A DNA stretch of 64,000 nucleotides, taken from an uncultured Candidatus Saccharibacteria bacterium. Lineage in GTDB: Bacteria > Patescibacteriota > Minisyncoccia > Phycocordibacterales > DATDWN01. This document shows, one piece after another, positions 38,172 through 57,017 of this stretch (position 1 is its first letter; every line of letters starts with the position of its first letter). The stretch lies in NCBI GenBank assembly GCA_964391455.1, contig CAYMJQ010000002.1, positions 12,688 to 76,687 on the forward strand. The letters run 5' to 3'. The notes beneath the pieces were generated by a model that was not told the DNA's origin, made no database searches, and saw nothing but the letters and a program-made list of their open reading frames with translations. Position numbers and translations under genes: made by a program.

Positions 38172-38202
38172 ATTATATTAAAGTTAATTTTCTTAGCTTT
38201 TC

Positions 38203-38285
38203 CAAATTTGGTCAATCTCATCTTCTAAATTTTTAAAATATTCGTTGCCTTACTACCTGTAAGGCTTCTTACATTTTAAAAACTT
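38203..38285. repeat. dispersed ~85-bp intergenic repeat, copy B (contains hairpin gccttac…gtaaggc)
   Basis: It aligns along its length with 46964-47046 (caaatttgg…ttcgt.gccttactac.tgtaag…attttaaaa). Confidence 0.55.
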
Positions 38286-38345
38286 ATAAGTGATTTTGTC
38301 TCAAATTATGAAAAAGATTCTTTTAATCTAATAATACTAACACAA

Positions 38346-39509
38346 TTATTCAATAACAATTTCAGGTTCTGTTTCATTTTTCTTGTCTTCTTCTGATTTC
38401 CCAGTAGATTGGATATCAATTTTCCAACCTGTAAGTTTGGCAGCAAGACGTACATTTTGACCACCCTTACCTATAGCAAGAGATTGTTGGTCTTCAGATA
38501 CACTTACAGTTGCTTGTTTTTCTTCTTCATTTATTTTTACATCAAGGATTTTTGCTGGAGATAGTGCGTCTTCAATAAATTTCTTAGAGTCTTCAGACCA
38601 CTCTATTATGTCTATTTTTTCACCTCCTAGTTCTGACATAACAGTAGAAACACGAACACCACGTTGACCAACCATTGATCCAACTGGGTCTATGTGTGAA
38701 TCGGTCGAAGATACTGCTATTTTAGTCCTTGACCCTGCTTCTCTTGCAATAGATTTTATTACTACTGTTCCATTAACAATTTCTGGAGTTTCAGCTTCAA
38801 AAAGTTTTTCTAAAAATTTAGGGTGTGAACGTGAAAGTCTTAGAAATACTCCTTTCCCAGATTCTTCTACTCTATATAAGTAAGCCCTAACTCTTTCTCC
38901 CTGACCAAATCTCTCTCCAGGAATTTGTTCTTCATAAGGAAGAAGTCCAGTTGCTCGTCCCATATCAATAAATATATTACCTCTTTCTATTCTTTGAACT
39001 GTTCCAGTAACAATTTCTCCCTCTTTTTCACCATACTGAGATATTATAGAGACTTTTTCCGCTTCTCTTATTTTTTGCATAATAACTTGTTTTGCTGTTT
39101 GAGCTGCGATTCTGCTGTAGTCATCTTGTGCTTCAAGAGGGAAAATCATTTCCTCTCCGAGAGTAACATTTTTTTTGATTCTTCTGGCATCGTCTATCAT
39201 TATATGGTGTTCTGGATTAAATAAATCTACAGTAGGTTGTGTATCTTCTGCTGAAGGGTCAAATTCCGGCAAATCTTCTTCGTTCATAACAACAGTAGTA
39301 TCATCAACCACTTTTTTGACCTGAAACATCTCTGTTTTTCCAGAGTTCATATCGAATTTTGCTCTTATTATTTGTCCTTTTTTACCGTATTCTTTTTTGT
39401 ATGCTGTAGCTAGTGCAAGCTCAATAGCCTCGATTATTTTTTCTCGAGGGATACCTCTCTCTTCTTCTAGTTGAGTTAGGACACTACCTATTACTTTTAA
39501 GTCAATCAT
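38346..39509 (-). CDS. nusA: transcription termination/antitermination factor NusA
   Basis: An N-terminal domain, an S1 domain and two KH domains with a characteristic sequence; 387 aa. Confidence 0.9.
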   Translation of the reverse strand: MIDLKVIGSVLTQLEEERGIPREKIIEAIELALATAYKKEYGKKGQIIRAKFDMNSGKTEMFQVKKVVDDTTVVMNEEDLPEFDPSAEDTQPTVDLFNPEHHIMIDDARRIKKNVTLGEEMIFPLEAQDDYSRIAAQTAKQVIMQKIREAEKVSIISQYGEKEGEIVTGTVQRIERGNIFIDMGRATGLLPYEEQIPGERFGQGERVRAYLYRVEESGKGVFLRLSRSHPKFLEKLFEAETPEIVNGTVVIKSIAREAGSRTKIAVSSTDSHIDPVGSMVGQRGVRVSTVMSELGGEKIDIIEWSEDSKKFIEDALSPAKILDVKINEEEKQATVSVSEDQQSLAIGKGGQNVRLAAKLTGWKIDIQSTGKSEEDKKNETEPEIVIE

Positions 39510-39817
39510 ATTATTTTTGAAAGTTTTTTGAATTAATTTTTAATTTTTTTCTTAAAAAAATGGCCCGCCCTGTGGCGAACTTCAATAAAATAATAATACA
39601 CCCTATGTATAATTTTGTCAATCGAAGCTTTGCCTCAGATTATATGTAAGTCTCTGGCGGTAATACTAAAAAATTTTTATTTATGAAATCTTTTACACAT
39701 TTTTGGAGCGTTACAAAAAAAATTTTGATATAATATTATGAAAGAATGGTGATAAAATCATAACTAATATTGAATTATACAAAATGTAGTAATTCATAAT
39801 TCTTTATTCAACCCATT

Positions 39818-41572
39818 ATGCACATAGAAGAATCACAGTTAAAAAATTTTATTTTGGATTCTGGTCTTGTTTCAAAGACAGATGTAGAGTCTGCTGAAAA
39901 AGAAGCAAAAGAAAACAATAGTAATATAGGAAAGATTCTTGTAAACAAAGGCAAACTTACAGAGGACGATCTTCGTCGTATGCAGGCATATATATTAGGT
40001 ATACCTTTTGTTGATTTAAAAAAAGAAAAATTACCTTTTGATGTCCTTTCTTTAATACCAGAACCAATTGCTAGAAACCATAATATAGTTGCTTTTAAAA
40101 AAAGCGATTCCGCTCTGGAGGTTGCCATGCTTGATACAGAAGATTTGACCGCTATTGATTTTGTAAAAAAGAAGACTGGTTTGAAAATTCTACCTAGACT
40201 GACCGATGATGATTCAATGAAGAGCGCTATTTTGCAGTATCAAAAAAGCCTTAAAGCTGAATTCGGAGATCTTATTGCGGAAGATGTGAGTAATATAAAA
40301 AATATTCCAAATGGAGATGGAGACGTTGATTTAAATGAACAAGACTTGAAGAAAATGGCAGATGATGTGCCAATGATAAGAATAGTTGATACCTTACTTA
40401 AACACGCTATTATTCAAAACGCTTCAGATATACACATAGAACCACAAGAAAAAGAACTTTTGATTAGATATAGAATTGATGGACTTTTGCATGACGCAAT
40501 GATTTTGCCTAAAAATATGGCACCTAGTGTTGTTGCTCGTATAAAAGTATTGTCTTCTCTTAAACTCGATGAAAAAAGACTTCCGCAAGATGGAAGATTT
40601 AAAATAGATTCAGATGGTGAAAAGGTTTCTTTTCGTGTTTCAACGCTACCAACTTATTATGGTGAAAAAATCGTGATGAGACTTTTACGTGAAAATGTAT
40701 CCGGATTTACTTTGGAATCTCTGGCCTTTCATGGTGAAGGTTTGGATAGGATACATAAAGCGGTTAAATCTACTACGGGGATGATTTTAACTACTGGTCC
40801 GACTGGTTCTGGAAAGACAACAACTCTTTATACTGTATTAGATATTCTAAATACTCCAGATGTAAATATATCTACCATTGAGGATCCTATTGAATATCAA
40901 ATGAAAAGAGTTAATCAAACTCAAGTTAGGCCAGAGATAGGTTTCACTTTTGCTTCTGGGCTTAGGACTTTAGTTAGGCAAGACCCAGATATTATCATGG
41001 TCGGTGAAATTCGTGATGGCGAAACAGCTTCACTTGCGGTTAACGCTGCACTTACTGGTCACGTAGTTCTTTCTACACTTCACACCAACTCAGCTGCAGG
41101 TGCTATACCCAGACTTATAGATATGAAAGTAGAACCTTTTCTTTTGGTGTCTACTATAAATATAATTATTGGACAAAGATTGGTAAGAAAATTAACAGAC
41201 CAAAAGGAAAAATATAATTTAACTAAAGCAGAAATAGACACTTTGGGTAAATCAATAAATCTAGATAAGGTTTTGGATGCCTTAAAATCAGAAAAGATAA
41301 TAGGTAAAAGTGATAAATGGGAAGACATATCTTTTTATCGTCCAAAAACAGGTGTTAATCCAGAGGAATGTTTTTCTGGAAGATCTGGTATTCACGAAAT
41401 ACTTAAAGTTTCTCCAGCTATCAAAGAAGCAATATTAAAATCTGGAACAACAGATGATATTCAAAAAATTGCTGAACAAGAAGGTATGTTAACAATGATG
41501 GAAGATGGAATTTTTCAAGCGGTGCAAGGGTATACCACCATCGAAGAAGTCTTACGTGTTATATCGGAATAA
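39818..41572 (+). CDS. pilB: type IV pilus / T2SS assembly ATPase (GspE/PilB family)
   Basis: The Walker A GPTGSGKTTTLY, the Asp and His boxes, an N-terminal GSPII_E_N-like domain, and a tetracysteine replaced region. Confidence 0.85.
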   Translation: MHIEESQLKNFILDSGLVSKTDVESAEKEAKENNSNIGKILVNKGKLTEDDLRRMQAYILGIPFVDLKKEKLPFDVLSLIPEPIARNHNIVAFKKSDSALEVAMLDTEDLTAIDFVKKKTGLKILPRLTDDDSMKSAILQYQKSLKAEFGDLIAEDVSNIKNIPNGDGDVDLNEQDLKKMADDVPMIRIVDTLLKHAIIQNASDIHIEPQEKELLIRYRIDGLLHDAMILPKNMAPSVVARIKVLSSLKLDEKRLPQDGRFKIDSDGEKVSFRVSTLPTYYGEKIVMRLLRENVSGFTLESLAFHGEGLDRIHKAVKSTTGMILTTGPTGSGKTTTLYTVLDILNTPDVNISTIEDPIEYQMKRVNQTQVRPEIGFTFASGLRTLVRQDPDIIMVGEIRDGETASLAVNAALTGHVVLSTLHTNSAAGAIPRLIDMKVEPFLLVSTINIIIGQRLVRKLTDQKEKYNLTKAEIDTLGKSINLDKVLDALKSEKIIGKSDKWEDISFYRPKTGVNPEECFSGRSGIHEILKVSPAIKEAILKSGTTDDIQKIAEQEGMLTMMEDGIFQAVQGYTTIEEVLRVISE

Positions 41573-41585
41573 TTCCAAATTCGGT

Positions 41586-41650
41586 GAATTTCTTGTTCCC
41601 AAATTAAAAATACTTACTCACAATTTTATTTTAAAACTATAAACTATTTA
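41586..41650. repeat. dispersed intergenic repeat, shorter copy C
   Basis: ccaaattcggtgaatttcttgttcccaa…attttaaaact matches the ends and left arm of copies A and B. Confidence 0.45.
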
Positions 41651-41724
41651 TTTTTATTTTGATAGAATGTATATAGTATGATTTTTTTTCTAACACTAAA
41701 AACTAGAAACTAACAATTGTTTAT

Positions 41725-42936
41725 ATGTTGTTTCATTACAAAATTTTAAATAAAGAAGGGAAGGTTGTGGAAGGTGAAATGGAAGCAAAGGATAAATTTG
41801 CCCTATATCATAGTCTTAAACAAGATGGCTCTACGGTTGTTTCAGCCAATGAAATAAAAGATAAAAAGGCAATAGAAATTCCATTTCTGGGAGCTTTGTT
41901 TGATAAGGTAAAAACAAGGGATAAAATAGTTTTTGCAAAAAATTTGGCAAAAATGACCGAAGCAGGTTTGCCGATTACCCGAGCACTTTCTATCTTAGAG
42001 CGTCAAGCAAAAGGCCAATTCAAAAAAGTTCTTGTCGGAATTAGTGATTCTATAAACAAAGGAAATACTTTAAGTGATTCCATGAAAGCTTATCCAAAAG
42101 TGTTTTCTACACTTTTTGTATCAATGGTTAAGGCTGGAGAAGAGTCTGGTAATCTATCTGTTTCATTGCAAAATGTTGGCGAGCAAATGGATAAATCATA
42201 TCAACTAACTAAAAAAGTTAGAGGAGCAATGATGTATCCGGCTGTAATCATTTCTCTTATGATTGTAATCGGTGTTCTAATGATGATTTACATGGTGCCA
42301 ACTCTTACCTCTACTTTTATCGGTCTTGGCGTAGAATTGCCATTATCAACTAGGATTATTATTTGGATTAGTGATTTTTTGAAATCCTATATTGTTTTTA
42401 TGGCTGTTGGACTTTTAATTTTTTCTTTTTTTGCCCTTTGGTGGTTAAGAACACAGAAAGGACAAAGATTGTTGGATTTTGTTTTTTTGCATATACCGGT
42501 GGTAAAAAATATTGTTAAACAAGTTAATTCTGCAAGAACAGCAAGAACATTATCTTCTCTTCTTTCGTCTGGGGTTGATATTGTGTTGGCAATAGGTATA
42601 ACAAGAGACGTTATACAGAATTCTTACTACAAAGAAGTTTTGTTAGAAATTCAAAACATAATCCAAAAAGGAGAACCAATATCAACTGTTTTTGCTGAAA
42701 ACAGTAATTTATACCCTCTTTTTGTAAGTGAAATGGTTTCAGTTGGTGAAGAGACCGGTAAAATAGGTGAGATGCTTTTGGGTATAGCAGTTTACTATGA
42801 AGATGAAGTAGATCAAAAAACTAAAGATTTATCATCAATCATAGAACCTGTAATTATGATTTTTATAGGTGTTGGAGTTGGATTTTTTGCGATTTCGATG
42901 CTTGGACCGACTTACTCTCTGGCAGACGCCCTTTAA
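41725..42936 (+). CDS. pilC: type IV pilus / T2SS inner-membrane platform protein (GspF/PilC family)
   Basis: Two T2SS_F repeats and 3 TM helices; 403 aa. Confidence 0.8.
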   Translation: MLFHYKILNKEGKVVEGEMEAKDKFALYHSLKQDGSTVVSANEIKDKKAIEIPFLGALFDKVKTRDKIVFAKNLAKMTEAGLPITRALSILERQAKGQFKKVLVGISDSINKGNTLSDSMKAYPKVFSTLFVSMVKAGEESGNLSVSLQNVGEQMDKSYQLTKKVRGAMMYPAVIISLMIVIGVLMMIYMVPTLTSTFIGLGVELPLSTRIIIWISDFLKSYIVFMAVGLLIFSFFALWWLRTQKGQRLLDFVFLHIPVVKNIVKQVNSARTARTLSSLLSSGVDIVLAIGITRDVIQNSYYKEVLLEIQNIIQKGEPISTVFAENSNLYPLFVSEMVSVGEETGKIGEMLLGIAVYYEDEVDQKTKDLSSIIEPVIMIFIGVGVGFFAISMLGPTYSLADAL

Positions 42937-43072
42937 AAACAAAATAAAATTTCCTCATCTGCGTTGTTGCAGTTCAGTTTTGCTCGCTTGTCGTATTTTT
43001 ATACGGCTCGCTCTCAAAACATCCTGCGCCCTAGCGTTTGAAGTAATTTAATTTGTTTTTGATACAAGAAAA

Positions 43073-44878
43073 ATGAATAAGATAAATTTAAAACAGAATA
43101 GTAAAAAGGGGTTCTCACTTGTTGAACTTTTGGTGGGGGTAACAGTTTTTACTTTGATAAGCGTTTCTGTTTATACAAGTTATATAAGTATTTTTGATGT
43201 AGTAAAAGTAAGTAGAAGTAGACTCGAAGCTGTAGACTTAGCAAATGAGCAGTTTGAGATAATAAGAAATCTTCCTTATGCTGATGTTGGTGTTTACGGC
43301 AGTATTCCTAGTGGAGTATTGGTTTATGAAAAAAATTTATCTAAAAGTTCAAATATTTTTAATATAAGAACTACAGTAAGAAATATTGATGATCCTTTTG
43401 ATGGTACTTTAGGAGGTACTCCAAATGATCTTTCACCTGCTGATTATAAATTAGTTGAACTAGAGATAAATTGTTCTACTTGTGTAAATTTTATTCCTAT
43501 GTTCTTTACTACTCGTGTTGCTCCGAGAAATCTTGAAACAGCATCTACAAACGGAGCATTATTTATTAGAGTTTTTGATGCAAACGGTAATCCAGTTCAA
43601 GGAGCTAATGTTCGTGTCGAAAATAATCAAACCATACCTTCTATTTTGATTGAAGATGTGACTAATGCTAATGGCATGCTACAAATAGTAGATGCACCTC
43701 CGGGCGTTAATGCTTATGATATTACAGTAACAAAAAGTGGGTACTCGTCTGATAGGACCCATCGCATTGATGTATCTAATCCAAATCCAAGTAAACCACC
43801 AGCTACTGTGTTATTACAACAAGTTACTCAAATTTCTTTTGTTATAGATAGGGTTAGTACTTTTAATGTAAGCTCGGTAACTCAAACTTGCACCCCAATT
43901 CCTTCGTTTGATTTTAACTTAAGAGGAAGTAAGTTGATCGGTTCTTCTCCTGATGTGTTGAAGTACAACGAAAACAAAATTACTAACGGTTCAGGGTCTT
44001 TGAATATAAATAATCTTGAATGGGATTCTTATGTATTTAGCGGTATAGATAGCGCTTATGATGTTATAGGTTGGAATCCAATTTCTCCTATAAATTTAAT
44101 TCCAGATAGTAATCAAACAGTTCAGTTGGTTGTCGCTCCGAAAGACCCGAATACTTTGGTTGTTATAGTTACTGACGGGGCGACAGGCCTGCCTTTATCT
44201 GATGTATCTGTTGAATTATCCAGATCTGGTTTTACTACAGTTACCAAATCTACAGGTCAAGGTTTTATAAATCAAACAGACTGGTCTTCTGGTTCGGGAC
44301 AAGCAACTTCAACAATACTTAATATGTATTATTCGTCAGATGGAAACATTGAAAATAATAATCCAGCAGGCGAATTATCATTAAGGCAAGTTTTTGGAGA
44401 GTATGTTGGTTCTGGAATTCTGGAATCTTCTTCGTTTGATGTAGGCTCTCTAAGTAATTTTCAAAAGATATACTGGACCCCTATAGATCAGCCGATACAA
44501 TCAGGTGATCCTAACGTTCGTTTTCAAATCGCGACCAATGATGATGGTGGCATCTGGCAGTTCACTGGTCCGGATGGAACAAGCGGTTCTTATTACACAA
44601 CTACAAATCAAAATATTCACAGTATAAATAATGCTAAAAGATATTTAAGATATAAATTATTTTTAGATACAATCTCAACTTCTACTTCTCCTAATATAAG
44701 TGACGTATCTTTTACTTTTACTTCTTTATGTACACCTCCAGGACAAGTGAGTTTTTCAGGCTTATCAGATGGAGTTTATAATTTAAATTTATCTAAATCT
44801 GGTTATACGACCACCGATATATCAGTTAACATCAATTCTCCTTGGCAGAGCCAAAGTGTGATTTTATTACCTAATTAA
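43073..44878 (+). CDS. large prepilin-type protein (N-terminal cleavage/methylation motif) with beta-rich extracellular domains
   Basis: KKGFSLVELLVGVTVFTLISV matches the class III signal G^FSLVE. The protein is 601 aa. Confidence 0.6.
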   Translation: MNKINLKQNSKKGFSLVELLVGVTVFTLISVSVYTSYISIFDVVKVSRSRLEAVDLANEQFEIIRNLPYADVGVYGSIPSGVLVYEKNLSKSSNIFNIRTTVRNIDDPFDGTLGGTPNDLSPADYKLVELEINCSTCVNFIPMFFTTRVAPRNLETASTNGALFIRVFDANGNPVQGANVRVENNQTIPSILIEDVTNANGMLQIVDAPPGVNAYDITVTKSGYSSDRTHRIDVSNPNPSKPPATVLLQQVTQISFVIDRVSTFNVSSVTQTCTPIPSFDFNLRGSKLIGSSPDVLKYNENKITNGSGSLNINNLEWDSYVFSGIDSAYDVIGWNPISPINLIPDSNQTVQLVVAPKDPNTLVVIVTDGATGLPLSDVSVELSRSGFTTVTKSTGQGFINQTDWSSGSGQATSTILNMYYSSDGNIENNNPAGELSLRQVFGEYVGSGILESSSFDVGSLSNFQKIYWTPIDQPIQSGDPNVRFQIATNDDGGIWQFTGPDGTSGSYYTTTNQNIHSINNAKRYLRYKLFLDTISTSTSPNISDVSFTFTSLCTPPGQVSFSGLSDGVYNLNLSKSGYTTTDISVNINSPWQSQSVILLPN

Positions 44879-44879
44879 T

Positions 44880-45494: not shown

Positions 45495-46957
45495 TGAAAT
45501 TTTTTTATACTAAAAAAAATAAAGGTAGTCTGATGATACAAGCTATAGTTTTTGGTTCTATAGCTGTTGTTATGATAGGTGCTTTAATAAGTTGGGCTGG
45601 AGTAAATATAAAAGCAGGGAAGGTTTCAATGTATAGAGAGCAGGCACTGCAGATTGCTGAGGCGGGGGTAGATTATTATAGATGGCATTTGGCACATGCA
45701 CCTAATGATTTTCAAGATGGTACAGGACTCCCTGGTCCATATATTCATGATTTTCACAATAAAGATGGAATAAAAATAGGTGAATATTCTCTGGAAATAA
45801 TACCACCACCAGTTGGTTCTACATTGGTGGTGATAAGGTCTACTGGGACAATAATAGAAGATCCTACAGTATCTAGAACAATTGAGACAAGATTGGCTAT
45901 ACCTTCTTTGGCTAGGTACGCAATAGCTTCTAATAGTGATATTCGTTTTGGAGAAGGAACAGAGGTTTTTGGTCCTATACATTCAAATGGTGGAATAAGA
46001 TTTGATGGTATTGCTCATAATTTAGTTACAAGTTCTAGAGAGGATTATAATGATCCAGATCATACAGGTGGAAATGAGTTTGGTGTTCATACTCATGTTA
46101 ACCCTCCTCCGGGTAGTGGTGTAAATAATACATTTCGTCCAAATGAAGCTCCACCTAACACAATTCCAAGTCGTCCAGATGTTTTTGTTGCTGGTAGACT
46201 TTTTCCGGTGCCAGCTATTGATTTTTTAGGTTTTACGACTGATTTGGCACAAATAAAATCAGACGCTCAATCAAGTGGTAGATATTTTGGTTCTTCAGGA
46301 GCACTTGGTTACAGAATTCTTCTAAGAACAGATGATACTTTTGATTTGTATAGGGTTAATCAATTAACCTCTGCGGGAGGAAGTTGTACAGAAACAACAA
46401 CAGGTTGGGGAACTTGGAGTATAAGAACTACCGGAGGTTCTCAAACATTTTTGGCAAACTATGCTATACCAGCAAACGGATTAATCTTTGTAGAGGATCA
46501 TGTTTGGGTTGAGGGACAAATAAATTCTGCCAGAGTAACTATAGCTGCGGGAAGATTTCCAGATAATGCTACAACTAGACCAAACATTATGGTTAATAAT
46601 AATCTTTTATATACGAATTATGATGGTCAGGACGTTATTTCTCTTATTGCTCAAGGAAATATTAATACTGGCTTATCTAGTGCAAATAATCTTCGAGTAG
46701 ACGCGGCTTTGGTAGCTCAAAACGGTAGAGTTGGTAGGTACTATTACTCATCTAGTTGTGGTACGGGTTATACCAGAAATTCTATTACTTTGTATGGAAT
46801 GATCGCAAGTAATCAAAGGTATGGTTTTGCTTATACAGATGGAACAGGTTATAGCCAAAGAGACATTATATATGATGCAAACTTGCTTTATGCTCCACCT
46901 CCTTCATTTCCTCTAACTTCTGACCAATACCAGATCGTCTCCTGGAAAGAACTGTAG
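45494..46957 (+). CDS. pilus-associated protein with hydrophobic N-terminus (PilX/tip-like?)
   Basis: A 487-aa protein whose N-terminal helix follows the basic MKFFYTKKNKGS. It is overlap-coupled to the upstream pilin gene. Confidence 0.45.
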   Translation: MKFFYTKKNKGSLMIQAIVFGSIAVVMIGALISWAGVNIKAGKVSMYREQALQIAEAGVDYYRWHLAHAPNDFQDGTGLPGPYIHDFHNKDGIKIGEYSLEIIPPPVGSTLVVIRSTGTIIEDPTVSRTIETRLAIPSLARYAIASNSDIRFGEGTEVFGPIHSNGGIRFDGIAHNLVTSSREDYNDPDHTGGNEFGVHTHVNPPPGSGVNNTFRPNEAPPNTIPSRPDVFVAGRLFPVPAIDFLGFTTDLAQIKSDAQSSGRYFGSSGALGYRILLRTDDTFDLYRVNQLTSAGGSCTETTTGWGTWSIRTTGGSQTFLANYAIPANGLIFVEDHVWVEGQINSARVTIAAGRFPDNATTRPNIMVNNNLLYTNYDGQDVISLIAQGNINTGLSSANNLRVDAALVAQNGRVGRYYYSSSCGTGYTRNSITLYGMIASNQRYGFAYTDGTGYSQRDIIYDANLLYAPPPSFPLTSDQYQIVSWKEL

Positions 46958-46963
46958 AACTTT

Positions 46964-47046
46964 CAAATTTGGCGAAATTCTCGTTCTCAAGTTTCAAAAT
47001 GTTCGTCACCTTACTACTTGTAAGTTTCCTCATATTTTAAAACTCT
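46964..47046. repeat. dispersed ~85-bp intergenic repeat, copy A
   Basis: It directly follows the pilus operon stop. It contains the hairpin ccttactacttgtaagg and ends in attttaaaactc. Confidence 0.55.
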
Positions 47047-47124
47047 CAATATCGGATTTCATTCAAATTATGAAATTTCCAGAAACCAAATTGACTTTTC
47101 AGTAATTTAGTAGAATTTGGTACA

Positions 47125-47892
47125 ATGTTTGGTATGAAAAAACAGAAAAAACTGATTGTGGGGAATTGGAAAATGAATCCAATAGATGAGTATAATGCTA
47201 GAGATATCGTAAAGAAAGTTAAAAGGGCGAGTGAAAAATTAAAAAAATCTCAAGTTATTATTTGTCCTCCACATTTATATTTACCTCTTTTTACAAAAAC
47301 TAAAAGTAAAAATTTTTTATTGGGCAGTCAAAACGCACATTATGAAGTTTCAGGGTCTTTTACTGGAGAAGTGAGTTTTTCTATGTTGTATCAATTTGGT
47401 GTTCGTTTTGTAATAGTTGGACATTCGGAAAGAAGAAAAATGGGTGAGACAGATGAAGTCGTAAACAGAAAAGTTAAATCAATAGTAAATTCAGGCATGT
47501 CTGCGATTGTTTGTGTTGGTGAAAGCATCAGAGATCACAATGGTGATTATTTGGAGTTTATTAAGAAACAAATAAAAGAAGCCTTAAATGATGTTCCTAA
47601 AAAGATTTTAAATCAAATAGTCATAGCTTATGAGCCAATCTGGGCCATAGGAGCTAGAGAAGCTATGTCATCCAGAGATTTACATGAGATGTCTATATTT
47701 ATAAAAAAAGTTCTTAATGATACTTTCGGTTCTTATTCGGAAGATGTGAGAATTATATATGGTGGTTCTGTAGATAGTGTAAACGCAGATACTTTAGTAA
47801 AAGAAGGTAATGTTTCAGGACTTCTTGTTGGTAGACAAAGTCTCACACCAAAAGATTTTATACAAATTATAAATTCAGTTGATAATTTATAA
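47125..47892 (+). CDS. tpiA: triosephosphate isomerase
   Basis: The motifs GNWKMN, VIVGHSERR and AYEPIWAIG. Confidence 0.9.
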   Translation: MFGMKKQKKLIVGNWKMNPIDEYNARDIVKKVKRASEKLKKSQVIICPPHLYLPLFTKTKSKNFLLGSQNAHYEVSGSFTGEVSFSMLYQFGVRFVIVGHSERRKMGETDEVVNRKVKSIVNSGMSAIVCVGESIRDHNGDYLEFIKKQIKEALNDVPKKILNQIVIAYEPIWAIGAREAMSSRDLHEMSIFIKKVLNDTFGSYSEDVRIIYGGSVDSVNADTLVKEGNVSGLLVGRQSLTPKDFIQIINSVDNL

Positions 47893-47943
47893 ATTATCAG
47901 TAACTAAAACTTATATTATATAGTATTAATTATAAAATAATTT

Positions 47944-49080: not shown

Positions 49081-49174
49081 GTTATTGATTTATTTATATT
49101 TTACTTTATAGTTGTGGAAGGGTTCTTTGACTACCACCTGCCTGTGGCAGACTGGTAATTGTTAGGAGACTGCC

Positions 49175-49780: not shown

Positions 49781-49884
49781 TCTTTTGACCTTTGTTTCTG
49801 TGACTGTACTCTGTGCCTTGTCACTTAGACACTTGGTCCCTCCTCGAGTGGTTCGCCACTCGAGGAGTTATTGTATACAAAAAG

Positions 49885-50247
49885 TTATATCAAACTTTCT
49901 TTGAGTAGTTTTAGATTTGTTTCAAAATCTTTTGGGGTTCCAGAAACTTCTTTGTTTGGGAATACCCAGATGTGAGCGTGGGGAACTTCGTCACCAACTA
50001 TTTTAGAAAGTATCCAATCAGTGTTAAAAGCTTTTTGTTGGGCTAAAGCTATTTTTTTTGCCACTTCAAAATATTCTCCAGCATTTTCTACATCCCAAAC
50101 CCATCTTTTGTGCTCTTTGGGTATGACTTGGGTATGCCCAGGAGATTGGGGATTTATATCTAAAAAAGCTAGATATTTATCATCCTCATACACCCTATAA
50201 CAAGGTATCTCTCCCTTAACTATTTTGCAAAATATACAGTTGTTCAT
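49885..50247 (-). CDS. HIT-family (histidine triad) nucleotide hydrolase
   Basis: An N-terminal CxxC and the HIT motif HAHIWVFP; 120 aa. Confidence 0.8.
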   Translation of the reverse strand: MNNCIFCKIVKGEIPCYRVYEDDKYLAFLDINPQSPGHTQVIPKEHKRWVWDVENAGEYFEVAKKIALAQQKAFNTDWILSKIVGDEVPHAHIWVFPNKEVSGTPKDFETNLKLLKESLI

Positions 50248-50347
50248 AGATATTATTTTAACATAGACTCAAACTTTCTCATCCTACTACGATATATCGT
50301 AGTAGGATGAGAAGTGTTTCTAGTTGTGTGGGACGTGGTAGAATTAC

Positions 50348-52090
50348 TTGATGTCAAAAAAATACTCAGTTAGAGAGAATATTCCAGAAAAGATAGATAA
50401 AATATTTGAAGTACATTCTCCACTTGTGCGCTCATTACTGTATGCACGAGGTATAGAAGATTTAGAAACTGCAAACGCTTTTCTAAATCCTGATTACGAA
50501 AAACATCTTCACGATCCATTTCTGTTAAAAGATATGGATAAAGTGGTGGTTAGAATTTTAAAAGCAATTAAAGATGGAGAGAGAATAGGGATTTTCTCTG
50601 ACTATGATGCAGATGGTATACCTGGTGCAGTTGCGTTACACGATTTTTTTAAAAAAATTGGTTACACAAATTTTACAAATTATATACCACTTAGAAATGA
50701 AGAAGGTTTTGGATTAAATAACGATGCAGTAGAAATATTAAGTAAGGATGGTGTAAATCTACTCATTACTATCGACTGTGGTATTACAGATGTTTCTCAA
50801 GTAGATCTTGCAAATAAATTAGGAATAGATGTGATAATTACCGATCATCATATTCCAGGGAAAAAACTTCCAAAGGCTTTTGGAATAATTAATCCAAAGC
50901 AAAAAAAATGTGAGTATCCAGAGAAAATGCTCTGTGGTAGCGGTGTGATTTTCAAGGTTATTCAAGCTCTCATAAAAAAAGGAAAAGAAGATGGTGTGTT
51001 TGAATGGAAAGAGGGTCAGGAGAAATGGTTTTTAGATATGGTGGGGTTAGCTACACTTTCTGATATGGTCCCTCTTTTAGGAGAGAATAGAGTACTATCT
51101 TACTATGGGATGAAAGTAATACAAAAAAGTCCTAGAGCGGGTCTACAGAAACTTTTTTCACTACTTAAAATAAATCAAAATAAAGTTACCGAGGACGATA
51201 TCGCTTTTATGATAACTCCACGTATTAATGCAGCAAGCAGAATGGGTGTACCTTTAGATGCATTTAAACTTTTATCAACCATAGATGAGGTTGAGGCTGG
51301 AGTATTTGCAGAACACTTAAATAATAAAAATGATGAGAGAAAGGGTGTGGTAGGTAGTATGATACGAGAAATAAAAAAAAGGCTGGACGAACGCGAGGAA
51401 GATATGCGACATGTGTTTGTGTTTGGAAATCCAGAATGGAAACCAAGTCTGTTGGGGCTTGTCGCTAATAGTTTTTCAGATGAGCATAATAGACCTGTAT
51501 TTTTCTGGGGAAGAAATGGTGAGAGTGGAGAGGAGGGGCTAATAAAGGGTTCATGTCGAAGTGGCGGTGATACAGACATCGTAAAACTTATGGAAAGATG
51601 CAAAGATATTTTTGTAGACTTCGGTGGACATAAGGGTGCTGGAGGGTTTTCAATACTTCAAGAGAATGTACATCATTTAGAAGAAAGACTAAACGAAGCT
51701 TTTCATGAATTAGAGGCCGAAGGTTTTTTAACATCAGAGGCGATAGCTACGGTAGATAAAAAACTATCACTAGATGATGTGAATTGGGATACATACAGTA
51801 GTGTAGAAAAGTTTGCTCCTTTTGGACTAGATAACCCCAAACCACTTTTTCTTTTTGATGATGTTTTACTGCATGGAGTTAAACTTTTTGGCAAGGAGAA
51901 AAATCATTTAGAACTTAAACTCAAAAATTCTCAAAATAAAGATGTGAATGCAATGGCATTTTTCAAAACTGATCTAAGTTTCGATAGGCCGTTAAATGTA
52001 GGGGATAAAATAAACCTTGTAGCCACACTAGAAAAATCAGAGTTTCGGAATTTTCCAGAGTTAAGATTGCGAATAGTGGATATATTCTAA
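50348..52090 (+). CDS. recJ: single-stranded-DNA-specific exonuclease RecJ (DHH/DHHA1)
   Basis: DHH motifs (FSDYDADG, ITDHH), a DHHA1 domain with GGH, and a C-terminal OB-like domain; 580 aa. Confidence 0.8.
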   Translation: MMSKKYSVRENIPEKIDKIFEVHSPLVRSLLYARGIEDLETANAFLNPDYEKHLHDPFLLKDMDKVVVRILKAIKDGERIGIFSDYDADGIPGAVALHDFFKKIGYTNFTNYIPLRNEEGFGLNNDAVEILSKDGVNLLITIDCGITDVSQVDLANKLGIDVIITDHHIPGKKLPKAFGIINPKQKKCEYPEKMLCGSGVIFKVIQALIKKGKEDGVFEWKEGQEKWFLDMVGLATLSDMVPLLGENRVLSYYGMKVIQKSPRAGLQKLFSLLKINQNKVTEDDIAFMITPRINAASRMGVPLDAFKLLSTIDEVEAGVFAEHLNNKNDERKGVVGSMIREIKKRLDEREEDMRHVFVFGNPEWKPSLLGLVANSFSDEHNRPVFFWGRNGESGEEGLIKGSCRSGGDTDIVKLMERCKDIFVDFGGHKGAGGFSILQENVHHLEERLNEAFHELEAEGFLTSEAIATVDKKLSLDDVNWDTYSSVEKFAPFGLDNPKPLFLFDDVLLHGVKLFGKEKNHLELKLKNSQNKDVNAMAFFKTDLSFDRPLNVGDKINLVATLEKSEFRNFPELRLRIVDIF

Positions 52091-52093
52091 CAC

Positions 52094-52122
52094 TTGACAA
52101 AAAAAATGCTTAGTATATAATT
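52094..52122 (+). promoter_or_regulatory. consensus sigma70 promoter TTGACA-16-TATAAT
   Basis: The sequence reads ttgacaaaaaaaatgcttagtatataat. Confidence 0.5.
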
Positions 52123-52128
52123 GTGTTT

Positions 52129-52221
52129 GAACGAGCATCCCCAAGGGGCACTGCTCGGAACGTAAGACAATTAAGTATCGGGTACTACCCCGGGCCCCTA
52201 AAAAGGCCCGGGTTTCTCTTT
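52129..52221 (+). ncRNA. candidate ~90-nt small RNA (or attenuator leader of rnhA)
   Basis: It runs from the consensus promoter to a GC-clamped terminator, cccgggcc-cctaaaaa-ggcccggg plus tttctcttt. It has internal stems (cgagca…tgctcg, cccc-aa-gggg). No ORF or SD is present. Confidence 0.35.
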
Positions 52222-52249
52222 GCAAAAATATATTTGTTATACTAATTAA

Positions 52250-52921
52250 ATGATAAAAATTTTTACTGATGGTTCATCTCGCGGTAATCCTGGTCCTGGG
52301 GGGTGGGGAGCAATACTTGTTATGGAAGATAGGGTTCTTGAACTTGGTGGAAGAGAAGATGACACTACAAATAACCGTATGGAACTTACTGCAGTTTTAG
52401 AGTCACTTAAACAGGCAACTGATCCTAATATAGAAATATTTACAGACTCTGCATATGTTCTAAATGGCGCCACTCGCTGGGTTAAAGGTTGGGTTAAAAA
52501 TAATTGGAAGACAAGCACCAAAGACGATGTGTTAAACAAGGATTTGTGGGAAAGTCTAGTTTCTCTTACAGAACACAAAAATATTTCTTGGAATCTAGTT
52601 AAGGGTCATGCGGGACATGCAGGTAACGAAAGATGTGATGTTATTGCAACTTCTTTTGCTGACAATAATCCCACAGTTTTATATAAAGGTAGTAGAGAAC
52701 GTTATGGAGTTGCTATAAACAATGTTGCAACTACCGGGCTACCTGAAAGCAAAAGCAAATCCAAGGCTTACTCGTATGTAAGTATGGTGGATGGAGAAAT
52801 ACAAATTCACAAAACTTGGGATGAATGTAAAGAAAGGGTAAATGGTAAAAGTGGCGCACGTTTTAAAAAATCTACTTCACCACAAAATGAGGAAGAGATA
52901 ATAGAGGAGTTTTCAAATTAG
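52250..52921 (+). CDS. rnhA: ribonuclease HI with C-terminal extension
   Basis: MIKIFTDGSSRGNPGPGGWGAIL plus the DEDD catalytic pattern, and an ~80-aa extra C-terminal tail. Confidence 0.85.
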   Translation: MIKIFTDGSSRGNPGPGGWGAILVMEDRVLELGGREDDTTNNRMELTAVLESLKQATDPNIEIFTDSAYVLNGATRWVKGWVKNNWKTSTKDDVLNKDLWESLVSLTEHKNISWNLVKGHAGHAGNERCDVIATSFADNNPTVLYKGSRERYGVAINNVATTGLPESKSKSKAYSYVSMVDGEIQIHKTWDECKERVNGKSGARFKKSTSPQNEEEIIEEFSN

Positions 52922-53054
52922 TATTTTTAGATTTCGCGAGTAATTAGAAAACAACTAAAAAATTATAGTTCAACAAAATTTAAGAAATACTAATTTGAAG
53001 ACTTTAAGATTGGGAAGTGTTTGCAATATTGTTAAAAAGGAATAGAGTGGGGGC

Positions 53055-54536
53055 ATGATTTTATCAGCCACATTTGGCTTCATCTTAGGTATTGCCAGTG
53101 CTTCATTTTTCTATTTTGATTTCTGGTCTATTTTAGCTTTGTTTTTAGGTGGTTTCATTTCTTTTTCTTTTTATTATTTCAGAAGCAATGTTTCAAGAGA
53201 AAAATTTTGGATATTTACTTTATTTTTTGTGTTTTTTATTTTAGGTGTTTTCAGAATAAATGTTTCAGATCTTTATTCTGAATCAAAATTAAAAGATTTT
53301 GATTCCAAGAAAATTATTGTTTCAGGTGTTATAGTTTCTGAACCAGACATCAGGGATAACAACACAAAATATACTATTGAGGTGCAAAAAATTTTTCCAT
53401 CAGGAGACAACAATTTAGATATTAGATTGGTTACAACTGAAAAAATATTAGTTACACTTCCTCTTTATCCAAAATTTAATTATGGAGACGAAATAAAAGT
53501 AAATGTTTCACTACAAAAACCAAAGTTAATAGAAAATGAAGATGGAAGGATTTTTAATTATGAAGGTTACTTGAGGGTGAGAGGTATTTGGTACACTTCA
53601 AATTATTCTACAGCAGAACCCCTATCTTCTGGTAATGGAAACATTATTAAACATTGGTTATTCAAAACCAAAAACATTTTCACAAATTCTATTGAAAATG
53701 TTTTACCACAACCTGAATCCAGTTTGCTTGGTGGATTGTTACTTGGCTCAAAACAAAGTTTGGGAAAAGATCTATTAAATGATTTTCAAAGAACAGGAAT
53801 TTCTCATATTGTTGTTTTGTCTGGTTACAACATTGCAATAGTTGCTGATAGCATAATTAATTTTTTTAAATTTTTACCAAAAAATATATCTTTCGGTTTT
53901 GGTACTGTGGGAATAATTTTATTTACAATTTTATCTGGTTCTGGGTCTTCCGGAGTGCGTGCATCTATTATGGTTTTGATTGCTTTGTTTGCAAAACATA
54001 GCAATAGAGATTATAAGTCAGATAGAATTTTAGGTTTCACAATTTTTGCAATGCTTTTGTATAACCCTCTTCTTTTGATATTTGATCCATCTTTCCAACT
54101 TTCTATTTTGGCAACAATAGGAATTATTTTTGTTTCTCCGGTGCTGGAAAAATATTTTAAAAATATTCCAGAGAAATTTGGTATGAGAGAAATATTTTCT
54201 ACCACTATAGCTACTCAAATAACTGTTCTACCCCTGCTTATATATAGTACAGGTATAGTTTCATTTGTTTCACTGCCTGTTAATGTTTTGATTTTGGGAA
54301 CAATACCAATAACTATGTTTTTCGGGTTTATTACCGGATTACTTGGTTTATTTTCTATGTATCTTGCTTTTGTACCAGCCTTTTTTACATACGTGCTTTT
54401 ATGGTATCAACTAAAAATAGTTGCCATAGGAAGTAGTGTTTCATTTGGTGTGATTAGTTTACCAGCTTTTTCTTCTGTGTTTTTATTTTTTATTTATATT
54501 TTGTTATTTTGGTTATTTTATAAAATTAAAAATTAA
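53055..54536 (+). CDS. comEC: ComEC/Rec2 N-terminal part (DUF4131 + competence channel domain)
   Basis: A polytopic protein with the ComEC core motifs SGYNIAIVADSI and ISHIVVLSG. It lacks the metallo-beta-lactamase domain. Confidence 0.75.
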   Translation: MILSATFGFILGIASASFFYFDFWSILALFLGGFISFSFYYFRSNVSREKFWIFTLFFVFFILGVFRINVSDLYSESKLKDFDSKKIIVSGVIVSEPDIRDNNTKYTIEVQKIFPSGDNNLDIRLVTTEKILVTLPLYPKFNYGDEIKVNVSLQKPKLIENEDGRIFNYEGYLRVRGIWYTSNYSTAEPLSSGNGNIIKHWLFKTKNIFTNSIENVLPQPESSLLGGLLLGSKQSLGKDLLNDFQRTGISHIVVLSGYNIAIVADSIINFFKFLPKNISFGFGTVGIILFTILSGSGSSGVRASIMVLIALFAKHSNRDYKSDRILGFTIFAMLLYNPLLLIFDPSFQLSILATIGIIFVSPVLEKYFKNIPEKFGMREIFSTTIATQITVLPLLIYSTGIVSFVSLPVNVLILGTIPITMFFGFITGLLGLFSMYLAFVPAFFTYVLLWYQLKIVAIGSSVSFGVISLPAFSSVFLFFIYILLFWLFYKIKN

Positions 54537-54541
54537 TTTTA

Positions 54542-55132
54542 TTACGCGTTATTAAATCTATCCTCAACTTTTTTCCAATTTAGATTTGTAAAAAAATCTT
54601 CTACATATTGTTTTTTACCACTTGGCTCATAGTCAGACACAAAAGAGTGTTCCCACATATCTAATGCAAGTATTGGAGTACAGTTTTGCAACTGTCCTAA
54701 ATGTTGTTCATCAACCCAAGAAGTTAGAAGTTTATTCTCTTTTTTGTCTAACCAAAGCATTGCCCAACCAACACCTCTTGTTAATGCAATAGTTTTAAAG
54801 TATTTAAGAAAGTTATCCAGGGTTCCATAATTTTCTTCCAATGCTTTTTTAAGCCCTTCATCTGAAAGTTCTTTCGGTCCATCTGACAGAGAATCAAAAT
54901 ATATTTCATGATTTCTCATACCATTATATTCAAAAGAAAATCTTCTATTTAATTCTCCAATCAGATAAATATTTTTTTCTACATCTTCCATAAAAAGTTC
55001 ATACAATTTCTGATTTACAAGGTTGGCATTTTTTACATACCCGGAATACAGTTTTAAATGTTCTTCTATGTTTTTTGTTGAAATGCCTTTAAGTTCCCCA
55101 ATATTAAATTTTTTTTCTTCAAATTGTGCCAT
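54542..55132 (-). CDS. sodA: Fe/Mn superoxide dismutase
   Basis: The motif DMWEHSFV…Y (compare DVWEHAYY) and metal-ligand His positions in the N-domain. Confidence 0.85.
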   Translation of the reverse strand: MAQFEEKKFNIGELKGISTKNIEEHLKLYSGYVKNANLVNQKLYELFMEDVEKNIYLIGELNRRFSFEYNGMRNHEIYFDSLSDGPKELSDEGLKKALEENYGTLDNFLKYFKTIALTRGVGWAMLWLDKKENKLLTSWVDEQHLGQLQNCTPILALDMWEHSFVSDYEPSGKKQYVEDFFTNLNWKKVEDRFNNA

Positions 55133-55154
55133 AGTTTATGTTTAAATTTATAAA

Positions 55155-56096
55155 TTGAAATTAGTATGTATACTATACCACATGGATGGAGTCGTGTTAC
55201 AAAGAAAAAATAAGCTCAAGAAGTACTTAATCATAGGTTTTTTTATTCTCAGTCTTTTTTTACTTTGGTCTATTTTTTTAGATAAAAAAGATAATTTATT
55301 AAAATTTTCTATGTTAGATGTTGGACAGGGAGATGCGTTATTTATAGAATCGCCAACAAAAGTTCAGGTGTTAGTAGATGGTGGCCCGGGAAATAATTTA
55401 TCAAGACAGATTTCAAAAGTTATACCTTGGCATGACCGACACATAGATATATTAGTTGTTACAAACCCAGATAGAGATCATTATGAAGGTTTTATAAAAC
55501 TTTTAGATAAGTATTCTGTAGGACTTTTAATAGAACCTGGTGTTATTAAAAATGATCCAGTTTACGAAGTCTTTAAAAATAAAATTAAAGATAAAAATAT
55601 TGAAACTGTTTTAGCTCGTAGAGGACAGGTCATAGATATAGGTGACGGGGCCTATTTACAAGTTCTATTTCCAGATAGAAATGTCTCACAAGTATCTCCT
55701 AATATGGGTTCAATAGTAATGAAACTTTTTTATAAAAATACAAATGTGATATTGCAAGGTGATTCCTTATCTAATATTGAAAATTATTTATTAGAAATAG
55801 ATGGAGATTATTTAAAAAGTGATATTTTAAAAGTAGGACATCATGGTTCAAAAACAAGTAGTATCGAGAATTATGTAGCAAAAGTTAATCCAGATTTTGC
55901 TCTGGTTTCCGCTGGAGAAAATAATCCGCACGGACATCCACATAAAGAAGTTATAGACATTTTTTCTAATTTAGGGATTCCTGTTTATAGTACTTGCAAT
56001 AATGGCAATATAAATTTTAAATCAGATGGAGAAAAATTTACTTTAAAAAACAAAAAAATAAAACAAGCTATTGTTGGTTGCAAAACAAATATTTGA
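55155..56096 (+). CDS. ComEC-type metallo-beta-lactamase domain protein (separate cistron, N-terminal TM helix)
   Basis: …MLDVGQGDALFIE…VDGGP…TNPDRDH… with a C-terminal HHGS motif. It resembles a ComEC C-terminal domain. Confidence 0.65.
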   Translation: MKLVCILYHMDGVVLQRKNKLKKYLIIGFFILSLFLLWSIFLDKKDNLLKFSMLDVGQGDALFIESPTKVQVLVDGGPGNNLSRQISKVIPWHDRHIDILVVTNPDRDHYEGFIKLLDKYSVGLLIEPGVIKNDPVYEVFKNKIKDKNIETVLARRGQVIDIGDGAYLQVLFPDRNVSQVSPNMGSIVMKLFYKNTNVILQGDSLSNIENYLLEIDGDYLKSDILKVGHHGSKTSSIENYVAKVNPDFALVSAGENNPHGHPHKEVIDIFSNLGIPVYSTCNNGNINFKSDGEKFTLKNKKIKQAIVGCKTNI

Positions 56097-56136
56097 CATT
56101 TTTATAAAAGATATTAACATTTTTTTTGGAGGTAAG

Positions 56137-56334
56137 ATGAAGCACACCCTTCTTTGGGTTCGTGGTGGGGCGGAGGAAGTGGAACTTCCTTTTTCCGCTT
56201 CTCCGAGTGACGCGATGCCTCTGGCGAGGCGTCATGTTGAGAACTTGTCGCAGTCGACGGTGCCTTTGTCGAACTTCCGGCTTCGGATGCCGGATGGTCG
56301 CGAGGTGCCGATCGACCCCAAGAAGAAGCACTAG
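56137..56334 (+). CDS. GC-rich foreign-looking small protein (65 aa)
   Basis: A GGAGG SD 4 nt upstream. The product is MKHTLLWVRGGAEEVELPFSASPSDAMPLARRHVENLSQSTVPLSNFRLRMPDGREVPIDPKKKH. A perfect terminator follows. Confidence 0.4.
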   Translation: MKHTLLWVRGGAEEVELPFSASPSDAMPLARRHVENLSQSTVPLSNFRLRMPDGREVPIDPKKKH

Positions 56335-56350
56335 TACCAACTAGTGTAAA

Positions 56351-56388
56351 CAGCCAAATCCTGAAAACCAGGATTTGGCTGTTTTTTC
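56351..56388 (+). terminator. perfect intrinsic terminator
   Basis: The sequence cagccaaatcctg-aaaac-caggatttggctg is followed by tttttt. Confidence 0.7.
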
Positions 56389-56422
56389 TTTTTTTGTGTT
56401 ATATTGTTTTCCGGAGGATTTT

Positions 56423-56626
56423 ATGAGGGAAAATTGTTACGAGCTTCGCTGGCGGGTTGGTCAGGAGAAGATAAAGACGGGGTTTATGAATTTTTTTGGG
56501 GAGAAAGAAAAAGTTCTTCCTGAGGCAAGGGAAGTCGCCCAGAGGATTCATGGAAGAAATCCACTCATGAAGGATTTCTCTCTTCGAGGACCATGGGGAG
56601 AGGAAACTCCGATTTCTGTAAGCTAG
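56423..56626 (+). CDS. GC-shifted small protein (67 aa), second cistron of the cassette
   Basis: A GGAGGA SD 6 nt upstream. The product is MRENCYELRWRVGQEKIKTGFMNFFGEKEKVLPEAREVAQRIHGRNPLMKDFSLRGPWGEETPISVS. Confidence 0.4.
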   Translation: MRENCYELRWRVGQEKIKTGFMNFFGEKEKVLPEAREVAQRIHGRNPLMKDFSLRGPWGEETPISVS

Positions 56627-56632
56627 CTTTAG

Positions 56633-56671
56633 AAAACGACCGGACCATTTGTGTGGTTCCGGTCGTTTTTT
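56633..56671 (+). terminator. perfect intrinsic terminator
   Basis: The sequence aaaacgaccggaacc…ggttccggtcg is followed by ttttttc. Confidence 0.7.
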
Positions 56672-56692
56672 CATAGGTGATGTGTATTTTTA

Positions 56693-56727
56693 ATTTGGAA
56701 ACCAGTAGTTCGCCAAATTTGAGAATT
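56693..56727. repeat. partial inverted copy (D) of the dispersed repeat left arm
   Basis: ttcgccaaatttg is the reverse complement of the caaatttggcgaa start of copy A, and it sits next to aatttggaaacc. Confidence 0.35.
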
Positions 56728-56970: not shown

Positions 56971-57017
56971 AGTGTCGAATATGTTAGCATACATATATTA
57001 AAAAGCAAATTAAATAA

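Follow-up and report, generated by a model that had tools for sequence, protein, structure and literature searches.

The window analyzed here, a stretch of 64,000 nucleotides (nt) from contig CAYMJQ010000002.1 of an uncultured Candidatus Saccharibacteria bacterium, carries an interspersed repeat family that is real and considerably richer than first described. Each copy comprises about 125 to 127 nt and forms a single long imperfect hairpin, as seen in folds of copies from other genomes. We lean toward regarding it as a non-autonomous palindromic element of the same kind as the repetitive extragenic palindromes (REPs) and their hairpin-forming doublets (REPINs), ERIC (the enterobacterial repetitive intergenic consensus), and the Rickettsia palindromic element (RPE), mobile via a single-strand hairpin. 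The strand-specific folding of the copies, the lack of terminal inverted repeats (TIRs) and target-site duplications (TSDs), and an outer stem that must be templated together favor a single-strand hairpin intermediate over DDE-type cut-and-paste.

Anatomy and distribution of the hairpin family

The first-pass annotation had described a unit of ~85 bp with an internal hairpin, represented by the copies at 46964-47046 and 38203-38285. The whole-length alignment of these two copies is borne out, and their similarity extends further, ending some 110 nt into the unit with a TCAAATTATGAAA that both have; the corrected length given above includes this conserved TCAAATTATGAAA. The internal hairpin is present (19 nt) but is merely the tip of the one long hairpin. 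In type I copies, the basal stem AAACTTCC/GAAAGTTT is surmounted by AAATYTGG/CCARATT, in which a C.A mismatch is conserved and one base is bulged; the mid-stem has three short helices and then an AT-rich helix of ~13 bp, and the remaining parts are a conserved 7x7 internal loop (TTCGTCA/CTTCTCA) and the invariant tip CCTTAC-TAYYT-GTAAGG. The conserved block of the element consists of this central tip together with the 7x7 internal loop, whereas the ends are variable.

Covariation agrees with this fold. In an alignment of 39 type I copies, 90% of the cells are paired, 31 of the 44 pairs show compensatory double changes, and 173 cells are altered on both sides, compared with 43.5 in shuffles; when the partners are slid by 1 to 3 columns as a control, pairing reaches only 27 to 52%. 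These counts lean somewhat toward the model structure, to which the alignment was fitted, and the same covariation is visible in a raw MAFFT alignment. The copies make up a modular superfamily, comprising at least three types of arm and two of tip. Arm types Ia, Ib, II, and III share one common tip; type II arms read CTCATCTGCGTTGTTGC... / ...GCGCCTAGCATCTGAG (as in copy F of the window) and type III ends GGTCTTTTTG... / ...CAAAAATCC. Two further window copies, H and G, depart from this: copy H has type II arms of full length yet a different tip, GTATTTTTATAC, and copy G joins type-III-like ends to the alternative tip of copy H. A regular expression for the type III termini returned almost no matches, the pattern being too strict.

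A 22-nt degenerate tip pattern, for which ~4 chance matches are estimated in 596 Gb, was run on the GTDB species representatives and gave 45 loci, of which 39 lie in seven metagenome-assembled genomes (MAGs) of uncultured Candidatus Saccharibacteria, 3 in a Zambryskibacteria-labelled MAG, and 1 in a "Parcubacteria group" MAG, the last 2 being evident chance matches. Metagenomes added 39 loci. A viral origin was rejected, since the single IMG/VR match falls inside a 1133-aa open reading frame (ORF) and is a chance one. Two covariance models were also used, R1 with 14 training copies, none from the window, and R2 with copies F and H among its training copies. Over all sources R1 detects 99 distinct copies, including some missed by the strict tip pattern; the family, spread over many genomes, is therefore not the mere local duplication to which the first-pass annotation would have reduced it had a wider search found no further copies. 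Loci from this search are designated below by L-numbers and are 8- to 14-kb pieces chosen for containing a copy, not whole genomes. Local density can be high, some contigs having 3 or 4 copies in 12 to 15 kb: four are found within 13 kb in L048, and L084 has a tandem pair ~400 nt apart (7497-7623 and 8020-8146, minus strand) downstream of rny. The proteins of the window are 90 to 95% identical to those of MAG CAZSNI, which makes its source a Saccharibacterium related to that MAG. In the window and seven element-rich loci, Rfam 15 yields only tRNAs at gathering score (best sub-threshold E value at least 0.26), and none of its known RNA families matches the element even at permissive thresholds. 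A full-text search of the literature on repeats in the candidate phyla radiation (CPR), Saccharibacteria, and Patescibacteria returned no description of such an element. Genomes of Saccharibacteria, together with some of related CPR bacteria, harbor the element.

The window contains five full members (A, B, F, H, and G) and two truncated relics (C and E); genes next to A, B, C, E, and F were assigned by Pfam.

Copy B, 46954..47081, plus strand: full type I (Ia); R1 105.5 bits, E = 5e-25; its start is the TAG stop (46955-46957) of a 487-aa pilus-operon gene, and its tip hairpin is at 47009-47024
Copy A, 38193..38319, plus strand: full type I (Ib-like); R1 78.7 bits, E = 6e-18; tip hairpin at 38247-38265
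Copy F, 31931..32056, minus strand: full type II (other arms, same tip); R1 29.3 bits; found by the tip-hairpin search
Copy H, 42934..43060, plus strand: type II arms with the alternative tip GTCGTATTTTTATACGGC; fold of -36.3 kcal/mol, z = -5.2
Copy G, 58588..58716, plus strand: related hairpin of ~128 nt, type-III-like at its ends (GTCTTTTTGCC...GCAAAAATCC) and bearing the alternative tip
Relic C, 41573..41640, plus strand: degenerate, truncated 5' half of type I, directly after the TAA stop of pilB (39818..41572)
Relic E, 56684..56731, minus strand: 5' half of type I, through the 5' side of the tip; partial R1 matches only

The promoter and start of tpiA lie 12 to 43 nt downstream of copy B. 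Copy A occupies the spacer that separates two minus-strand genes, nusA and ppa, and has the minority orientation, opposite to both; its TAG (38194-38196) terminates no ORF. Copy F starts with the TAG stop of rny (32052..33581, minus strand), has an HU gene downstream, and is matched by orthologues after rny in L041, L009, and L084; R2, in whose training set F itself is included, gives it 135.3 bits. Copy H starts with the TAA stop of pilC (41725..42936), can be aligned with 18 type II copies along both arms, and obtains 107.6 bits from R2, of whose training set it is likewise a part. Copy G starts with the TAG stop of a 155-aa gene (58121..58588), after which relatives carry a type Ia copy; its folds are -40.5 (sense) and -47.9 (antisense) kcal/mol, with z values of -5.5 and -7.1, and its model matches are weak (13.7 and 16 bits). 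Relic C gives no full match to R1, and relic E starts with the TAG stop of rpmB (56728..56994, minus strand) and adjoins the terminator of a convergent gene; the two relics are 84% complementary to each other.

Copies F, H, and G had been missed in the first-pass annotation. The two shorter copies that it placed near 41586 and, inverted, near 56709 are real but prove to be truncated 5' halves, and its possibly degenerate copy at 22175-22226 has no match to R1 or R2 at E <= 10. Its gene contexts hold for relic C after pilB and for copy B after a gene of the pilus operon; copy A does not simply follow ppa, and the supposed neighbor of relic E, a "GC cassette," is in fact rpmB, encoding L28. At 56345-56386, the window also has a hairpin and T-run that resemble the element's pair of basal helices (AAACAGCCAAATCCTG..., R1 18.6 bits); this is probably an ordinary terminator and could be the remnant of an excised or collapsed copy.

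Placement behind stop codons and folding of the antisense strand

An upstream gene is identifiable for 95 copies, 84 of which are co-oriented with that gene and 11 opposite to it. A frame of at least 60 codons precedes 73 copies; the stop ends at element positions 1 to 6 in 59 of these, and in 72 the junction stop is the in-frame stop of the gene. The stop codon lies 4 to 9 nt ahead of the conserved CAAAT, within the variable outer part of the basal stem. The sole ORF to reach 9 codons into an element is a histidine-kinase-like one in L007 (4035-5621, minus strand), whose 528-aa product looks like a histidine kinase in translation; it uses the in-element TAG as its stop, so its C terminus is supplied by the element. 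Junction stops are TAA or TAG, with TGA in 1 of 72 versus 63 of 566 stops elsewhere (p = 0.006); as proof of a TAR target this depletion is ambiguous, since genes that overlap as ATGA, where TGA stops are common, offer no room for insertion. The upstream genes are housekeeping genes and often highly expressed, including those for RNase Y, EF-Tu, EF-G, RpoC, GAPDH, S10, sigma-70, and ParB, among the 25 most frequent families listed from a scan of 76 genes.

On the other side, the start of the downstream gene usually follows 7 to 160 nt after the element. In the 3' flanks of 32 copies (e.g., window 47082-47136), a TAnAAT or TGnTAnAAT box typically stands 6 to 9 nt before the downstream ATG, and a Shine-Dalgarno-like motif precedes the gene in just 5 of 32, a pattern that points to leaderless mRNAs, each gene having its own promoter, as the usual state in these genomes. 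The spacing of stop codon and box therefore places the element between the stop and the next, apparently leaderless, promoter.

The first-pass annotation proposed that the repeat may act as a terminator or mRNA-stability element. A classical terminator is not what is found: a U-tract is absent from both strands, the mean longest T-run being 3.2 (sense) and 2.3 (antisense) in the 12 nt spanning the 3' end; several copies are followed downstream by a canonical hairpin and T6-7 terminator; and the mRNA-sense strand is the poorer folder. At one orthologous site, L073 has the element in place of the canonical terminator stem of L035 with the T-tract kept, and some terminator-like use is therefore possible. 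The element may also have a role in the stability of mRNA 3' ends. Coding capacity was considered as well. A read-through peptide was rejected: the frame from the TAG to the TAA of the tip is open in copies A, B, and F (...PYYL*), but early stops occur elsewhere (L015) and copy A has no upstream ORF. Antisense small ORFs were rejected too, type Ia having stops in all three frames. As a separate observation, a canonical A-tract/hairpin/T-tract terminator at window 61366-61408 lies on the stop of the 713-aa EF-G-like gene and overlaps the longest predicted start of the next ORF (61390), which probably begins further downstream.

The folding of the two strands is markedly unequal. The strand antisense to the upstream gene is the better folder in 99 of 99 copies, with mean energies of -46.1 versus -32.5 kcal/mol for the sense strand in a first set of 58 copies, which has 239 and 80 G.U pairs, respectively, and -47.6 versus -34.0 kcal/mol in a second set; with DNA energy parameters, four of the five window copies point the same way. 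Within the element, the sense strand is rich in pyrimidines (C 22%, G 13%), with a GC skew of -0.28, compared with +0.12 for coding sense strands at the same loci, whereas the antisense composition (A 36.5, G 22.4, C 12.6, and T 28.5%) is close to that of the sense strands of genes, and the antisense internal loops are purine rich and able to form tandem G.A pairs. Substitutions follow the same strand. In 12 same-subtype orthologous pairs, which are partly non-independent of one another, single substitutions that preserve pairing as a wobble number 30 for the antisense and 7 for the sense strand, and double compensatory changes number 13. The element-free intergenic regions of the window have no such folding bias. 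Mutation bias was rejected as a cause, since deamination on the non-transcribed strand and on the lagging-strand template would predict the opposite direction. Taken together, the folding asymmetry, the wobble bias, and the bias-free control suggest that constraint acts on a folded bottom strand, either RNA or single-stranded DNA.

Turnover at orthologous sites and a proposed route of propagation

Copies have been gained, lost, truncated, and subtype-swapped at orthologous sites. The nusA-ppa spacer measures 174 nt in the window, where it holds copy A, and 66 nt in L012, where it has no element; beside a gene that reads as ClpP-like, it is L012 that has a copy and the window that has none. Relatives also carry a copy after the 391-aa gene 18056..19231 and the window does not, as judged by inspection of the 35-nt spacer. 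Clean empty sites are found in L022 and L036, which read TAA-ATAT-ATG where L024 has a type II copy, and in L035, whose canonical terminator stands where L073 carries the element. After the EF-G-like gene, identical flanks enclose a plain terminator in the window, a type III copy in L003, and a type I copy in L031. Bearing on the first-pass suggestion that the family may mark insertion hotspots, one site can hold different subtypes in different genomes: subtypes differ in 16 of the 30 orthologous pairs in which both sites carry the element, although the C termini of the proteins are 85 to 98% identical. Truncation is represented by relics that retain the 5' part only, C and E in the window and a 26-nt one at L027:784. 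Intragenic insertion is seen for 1 of the 99 copies, L084:3400-3524, a diverged element read on its purine-rich strand that makes a 34-aa in-frame insertion in an ORF (3162-3704) orthologous to window ORF 27788..28228; the latter encodes a conserved 146-aa protein that looks YraN-like from its sequence.

At the ends of the element, each copy has its own outermost ~10 bp of stem, and several different termini are seen. Over the outermost 12 nt, each arm fits its own partner better than those of other copies of the same class (8.6 versus 6.9, p = 2e-15; 8.7 versus 5.4, p = 3e-20). Complementarity beyond the 127-nt unit was considered and rejected (matched 3.44, mismatched 3.55), the flanks being unrelated. 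In pairs of filled and empty sites, the 5' strand of the outer stem is the ORF end with its stop codon, which has its homologous counterpart in the ORF end of the unoccupied site, and the 3' strand is the complement of the ORF end, at 14 of 17 positions at L073:2119 and over 8 nt at L024. A complementary stretch of this length is beyond point mutation and must be templated. The template step could by one route take place at insertion and by another through later intrastrand template switching, that is, quasipalindrome correction, which is a known process. Conserved TIRs are not found among these copy-specific ends. Direct repeats at the junctions are not consistent and none occurs in the filled-versus-empty comparisons; TA or any other TSD was rejected as inconsistent among copies. 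The first-pass label "REP/MITE-like" is apt for the broad class of interspersed repeat, but with neither TIRs nor TSDs the element is not a classical miniature inverted-repeat transposable element (MITE).

On the reading that we favor, the element would propagate and stay palindromic through a single-stranded hairpin intermediate and would not move by DDE cut-and-paste. A candidate enzyme would be of the HUH/Y1 type, acting by "peel and paste" as for REPs and IS200-IS605; a candidate alternative is intrastrand template switching in which the ORF end serves as template for the 3' arm. The bias in orientation and position would then represent the insertions that a very compact, promoter-per-gene genome tolerates. 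In mRNA, the copy would form a moderately stable hairpin of about -32 kcal/mol in the 3' untranslated region (UTR), which would not be a canonical terminator and may protect the 3' end of the mRNA or pause RNA polymerase.

Several observations weigh against a mobile element. The precision of the junction at the stop codon is hard to obtain from insertion preference alone. In this sample of loci, selected for having an element, copies follow rny in the window and in L041, L009, L084, and L047, and such recurrence at the same genes looks like selection per locus, for host function or by domestication, which would not be expected of a purely selfish element. Among the 12 orthologous pairs, divergence is 8.8% in paired and 17% in unpaired columns, indicating purifying selection on the stems. 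Near-identical paralogues are lacking: between non-orthologous copies, identity reaches about 91% at best, which gives no sign of recent bursts. Even at unrelated loci and in different species, type Ia copies are 85 to 90% alike, where the neighboring intergenic DNA is unalignable; the copies are either homogenized by conversion from an active pool or kept by selection. No transposase or partner gene was identified within the coverage of the 8- to 14-kb loci and the 76 upstream genes (25 commonest families listed).

The rules of position and orientation may alternatively reflect a real role at mRNA 3' ends. The copies would then be host cis-acting elements, stop-clamping hairpins that close transcription units right ahead of the following, mostly leaderless, promoter, with repeat-like spread as a secondary matter; their effect would be to obstruct 3' exonucleases, to make RNA polymerase pause or terminate, or to insulate neighboring units. 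This explanation, which we place on the unlikely side, draws on the exact placement between the stop codon and the -10 box of the next gene, on the replacement of the L035 canonical terminator by the L073 copy with retention of the T-tract, on the presence of copies at the same genes across species with stems under purifying selection, and on the housekeeping and often highly expressed upstream genes (EF-Tu, EF-G, RpoC, GAPDH, S10, and RNase Y). It also has precedents: ERIC at gene 3' ends alters transcript levels, Correia elements within transcripts are cut by RNase III, and QMITE2 is located mainly in 3' UTRs (PMC10969869). However, it is the mRNA-sense strand that folds more weakly in every one of the 99 copies, and substitutions keep pairing on the other strand (30 versus 7); in addition, the U-tract is lacking, canonical terminators stand after several copies, the presence of a copy at a given gene is optional, and 11 copies have the opposite orientation, with one inside an ORF.

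We consider it clearly unlikely that the copies are "stop-codon clamps," a distinct genome component, more than tolerated junk, whose functional fold is antisense and which is renewed by templated inverted copying of the ORF end into the 3' arm and kept by selection. Such clamps would be kept at the ends of transcription units in terminator-poor genomes whose mRNAs are leaderless, where they might serve as bidirectional insulators, for instance, or be acted on by a single-strand-specific enzyme.

It is most unlikely that the RNA of the purine-rich strand, transcribed antisense, is itself the functional form, either as small RNAs of ~125 nt or as a strong hairpin that stops divergent antisense transcripts, coming from the adjacent downstream promoter, short of the upstream gene. 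The better fold of this strand in all copies, its loops able to form tandem G.A pairs, its base composition near that of gene sense strands, and the promoters directly adjoining the element are consistent with such an RNA, but no conserved promoter lies ahead of its 5' end, several copies are only 7 to 14 nt from the next start codon and leave no room for one, no U-tract follows the antisense hairpin, and Rfam holds no similar family.

The attC sites are 57 to 141 bp long, and their function resides in the folded bottom strand. That the copies are attC-like single-strand recombination sites, with the tip (inverted CCTTA/TAAGG around a center of ~7 bp) as the core site of a tyrosine recombinase, is scarcely credible: the element is likewise an imperfect palindrome of attC-like length directly after a co-oriented ORF, with the bottom strand as the better folder, different subtypes between identical flanks, and a 6-5-6 inverted repeat at its tip, but it has neither R and L boxes (RYYYAAC/GTTRRRY; its ends read (T)AAAACTTCC ... 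GAAAGTTT(N) or are copy-specific) nor cassette arrays, and it is therefore not an attC site; its neighbors are syntenic housekeeping genes, no intI was seen, although no search aimed at it was made, its conserved tip and variable base are the reverse of attC, and members with the alternative tip are without the motif.

Relation to known repeats and significance

Returning to the interpretation as a mobile palindromic element, we find the closest comparison in the REPs and REPINs, which are likewise short interspersed extragenic palindromes at gene 3' ends in compact bacterial genomes. They too lack the TIRs and TSDs of DDE-type transposition, and the REP is recognized as a single strand; REPINs are hairpins of ~100 nt, and REPIN-RAYT systems are vertically inherited and long-lived (PMC3116915, PMC3337134, bioRxiv 10.1101/2021.07.10.451892). 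The differences are equally plain. REPs are GC-rich ~25- to 35-mers, two of which stand conserved at the ends of a REPIN, whereas the present element is AT-rich with a conserved tip and copy-specific ends, and two inverted conserved REP palindromes were not found at the ends of its hairpin; it has no identical "master" copies and, within the 8- to 14-kb loci, no RAYT so far. Terminating ribosomes of E. coli are reportedly stalled by REPs that lie no more than about 15 nt from a stop codon, an observation attributed to Liang, Rudd and Deutscher in 2015.

ERIC is an imperfect palindrome of ~127 bp in transcribed intergenic regions. As a MITE of the Enterobacteriaceae and Vibrionaceae, it is intergenic like the present element and has tens to hundreds of copies, and intragenic copies of it are known (PMC10969869). 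The two belong to different phyla, and no sequence relationship was detected between them. We know of no report of stop-codon locking, strong co-orientation with the upstream gene, or an antisense folding bias for ERIC. Intrinsic terminators and SPRITE-like repeats also place a hairpin between the stop codon and the next promoter, but the stem of the present element is about 55 bp long, AT-rich, and conserved in sequence, has no U-tract, and is often followed by real terminators. RPEs are palindromic repeats of ~100 to 150 bp in the reduced genomes of host-dependent bacteria and insert in frame into protein-coding genes (PMC10969869), as the element does once in L084, and one ORF here takes 9 codons and its stop from an element. 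In-frame gene fusions are unusually frequent for RPEs, with 44 insertions in R. conorii genes (PMC10969869), unlike the single case among 99 copies here, where the rule is a place directly after the stop.

Three other stretches stood out during the analysis. An intergenic stretch of 261 nt at window 31274-31534 has a predicted fold of -101.9 kcal/mol (z = -8.5), with a multi-helix domain and two terminator-like hairpins; it matches no Rfam family at gathering score and may be an undescribed structured RNA. The 308-nt divergent spacer between nusA (minus strand) and pilB (plus strand), at 39510-39817, marks a switch in gene strand and GC skew and the minimum of the cumulative skew; it could be the replication origin, or the skew could simply track the coding strand. 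In L012, at about 520-800, a GC-rich and strongly self-complementary segment of ~280 nt lies right after the element copy, in the spacer that follows the ClpP-like gene. The syntenic spacer of the window (34379-34462) lacks this segment, which may be an insert or a further structured RNA.

The genomes of CPR bacteria, Saccharibacteria among them, are streamlined and very small, and the general view is that they contain few repeats. In the sampled loci, which were chosen for a copy, about 1 gene in 9 carries a stop-codon hairpin, as do five genes in the 64-kb window. The element is set apart by its clamp on the stop codon, by tips and arms that are interchangeable, by a universal antisense-strand folding bias, and by copy-specific stems built from ORF ends; the last two are unusual, and all are directly testable. 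If the element is functional, it bears on how transcripts are ended and how units are separated where leaderless promoters lie a few bases apart. If it is a mobile element, it represents a long-lived new repeat system in a phylum whose mobile DNA is poorly known, and it would offer a handle for strain typing and for finding the enzyme.

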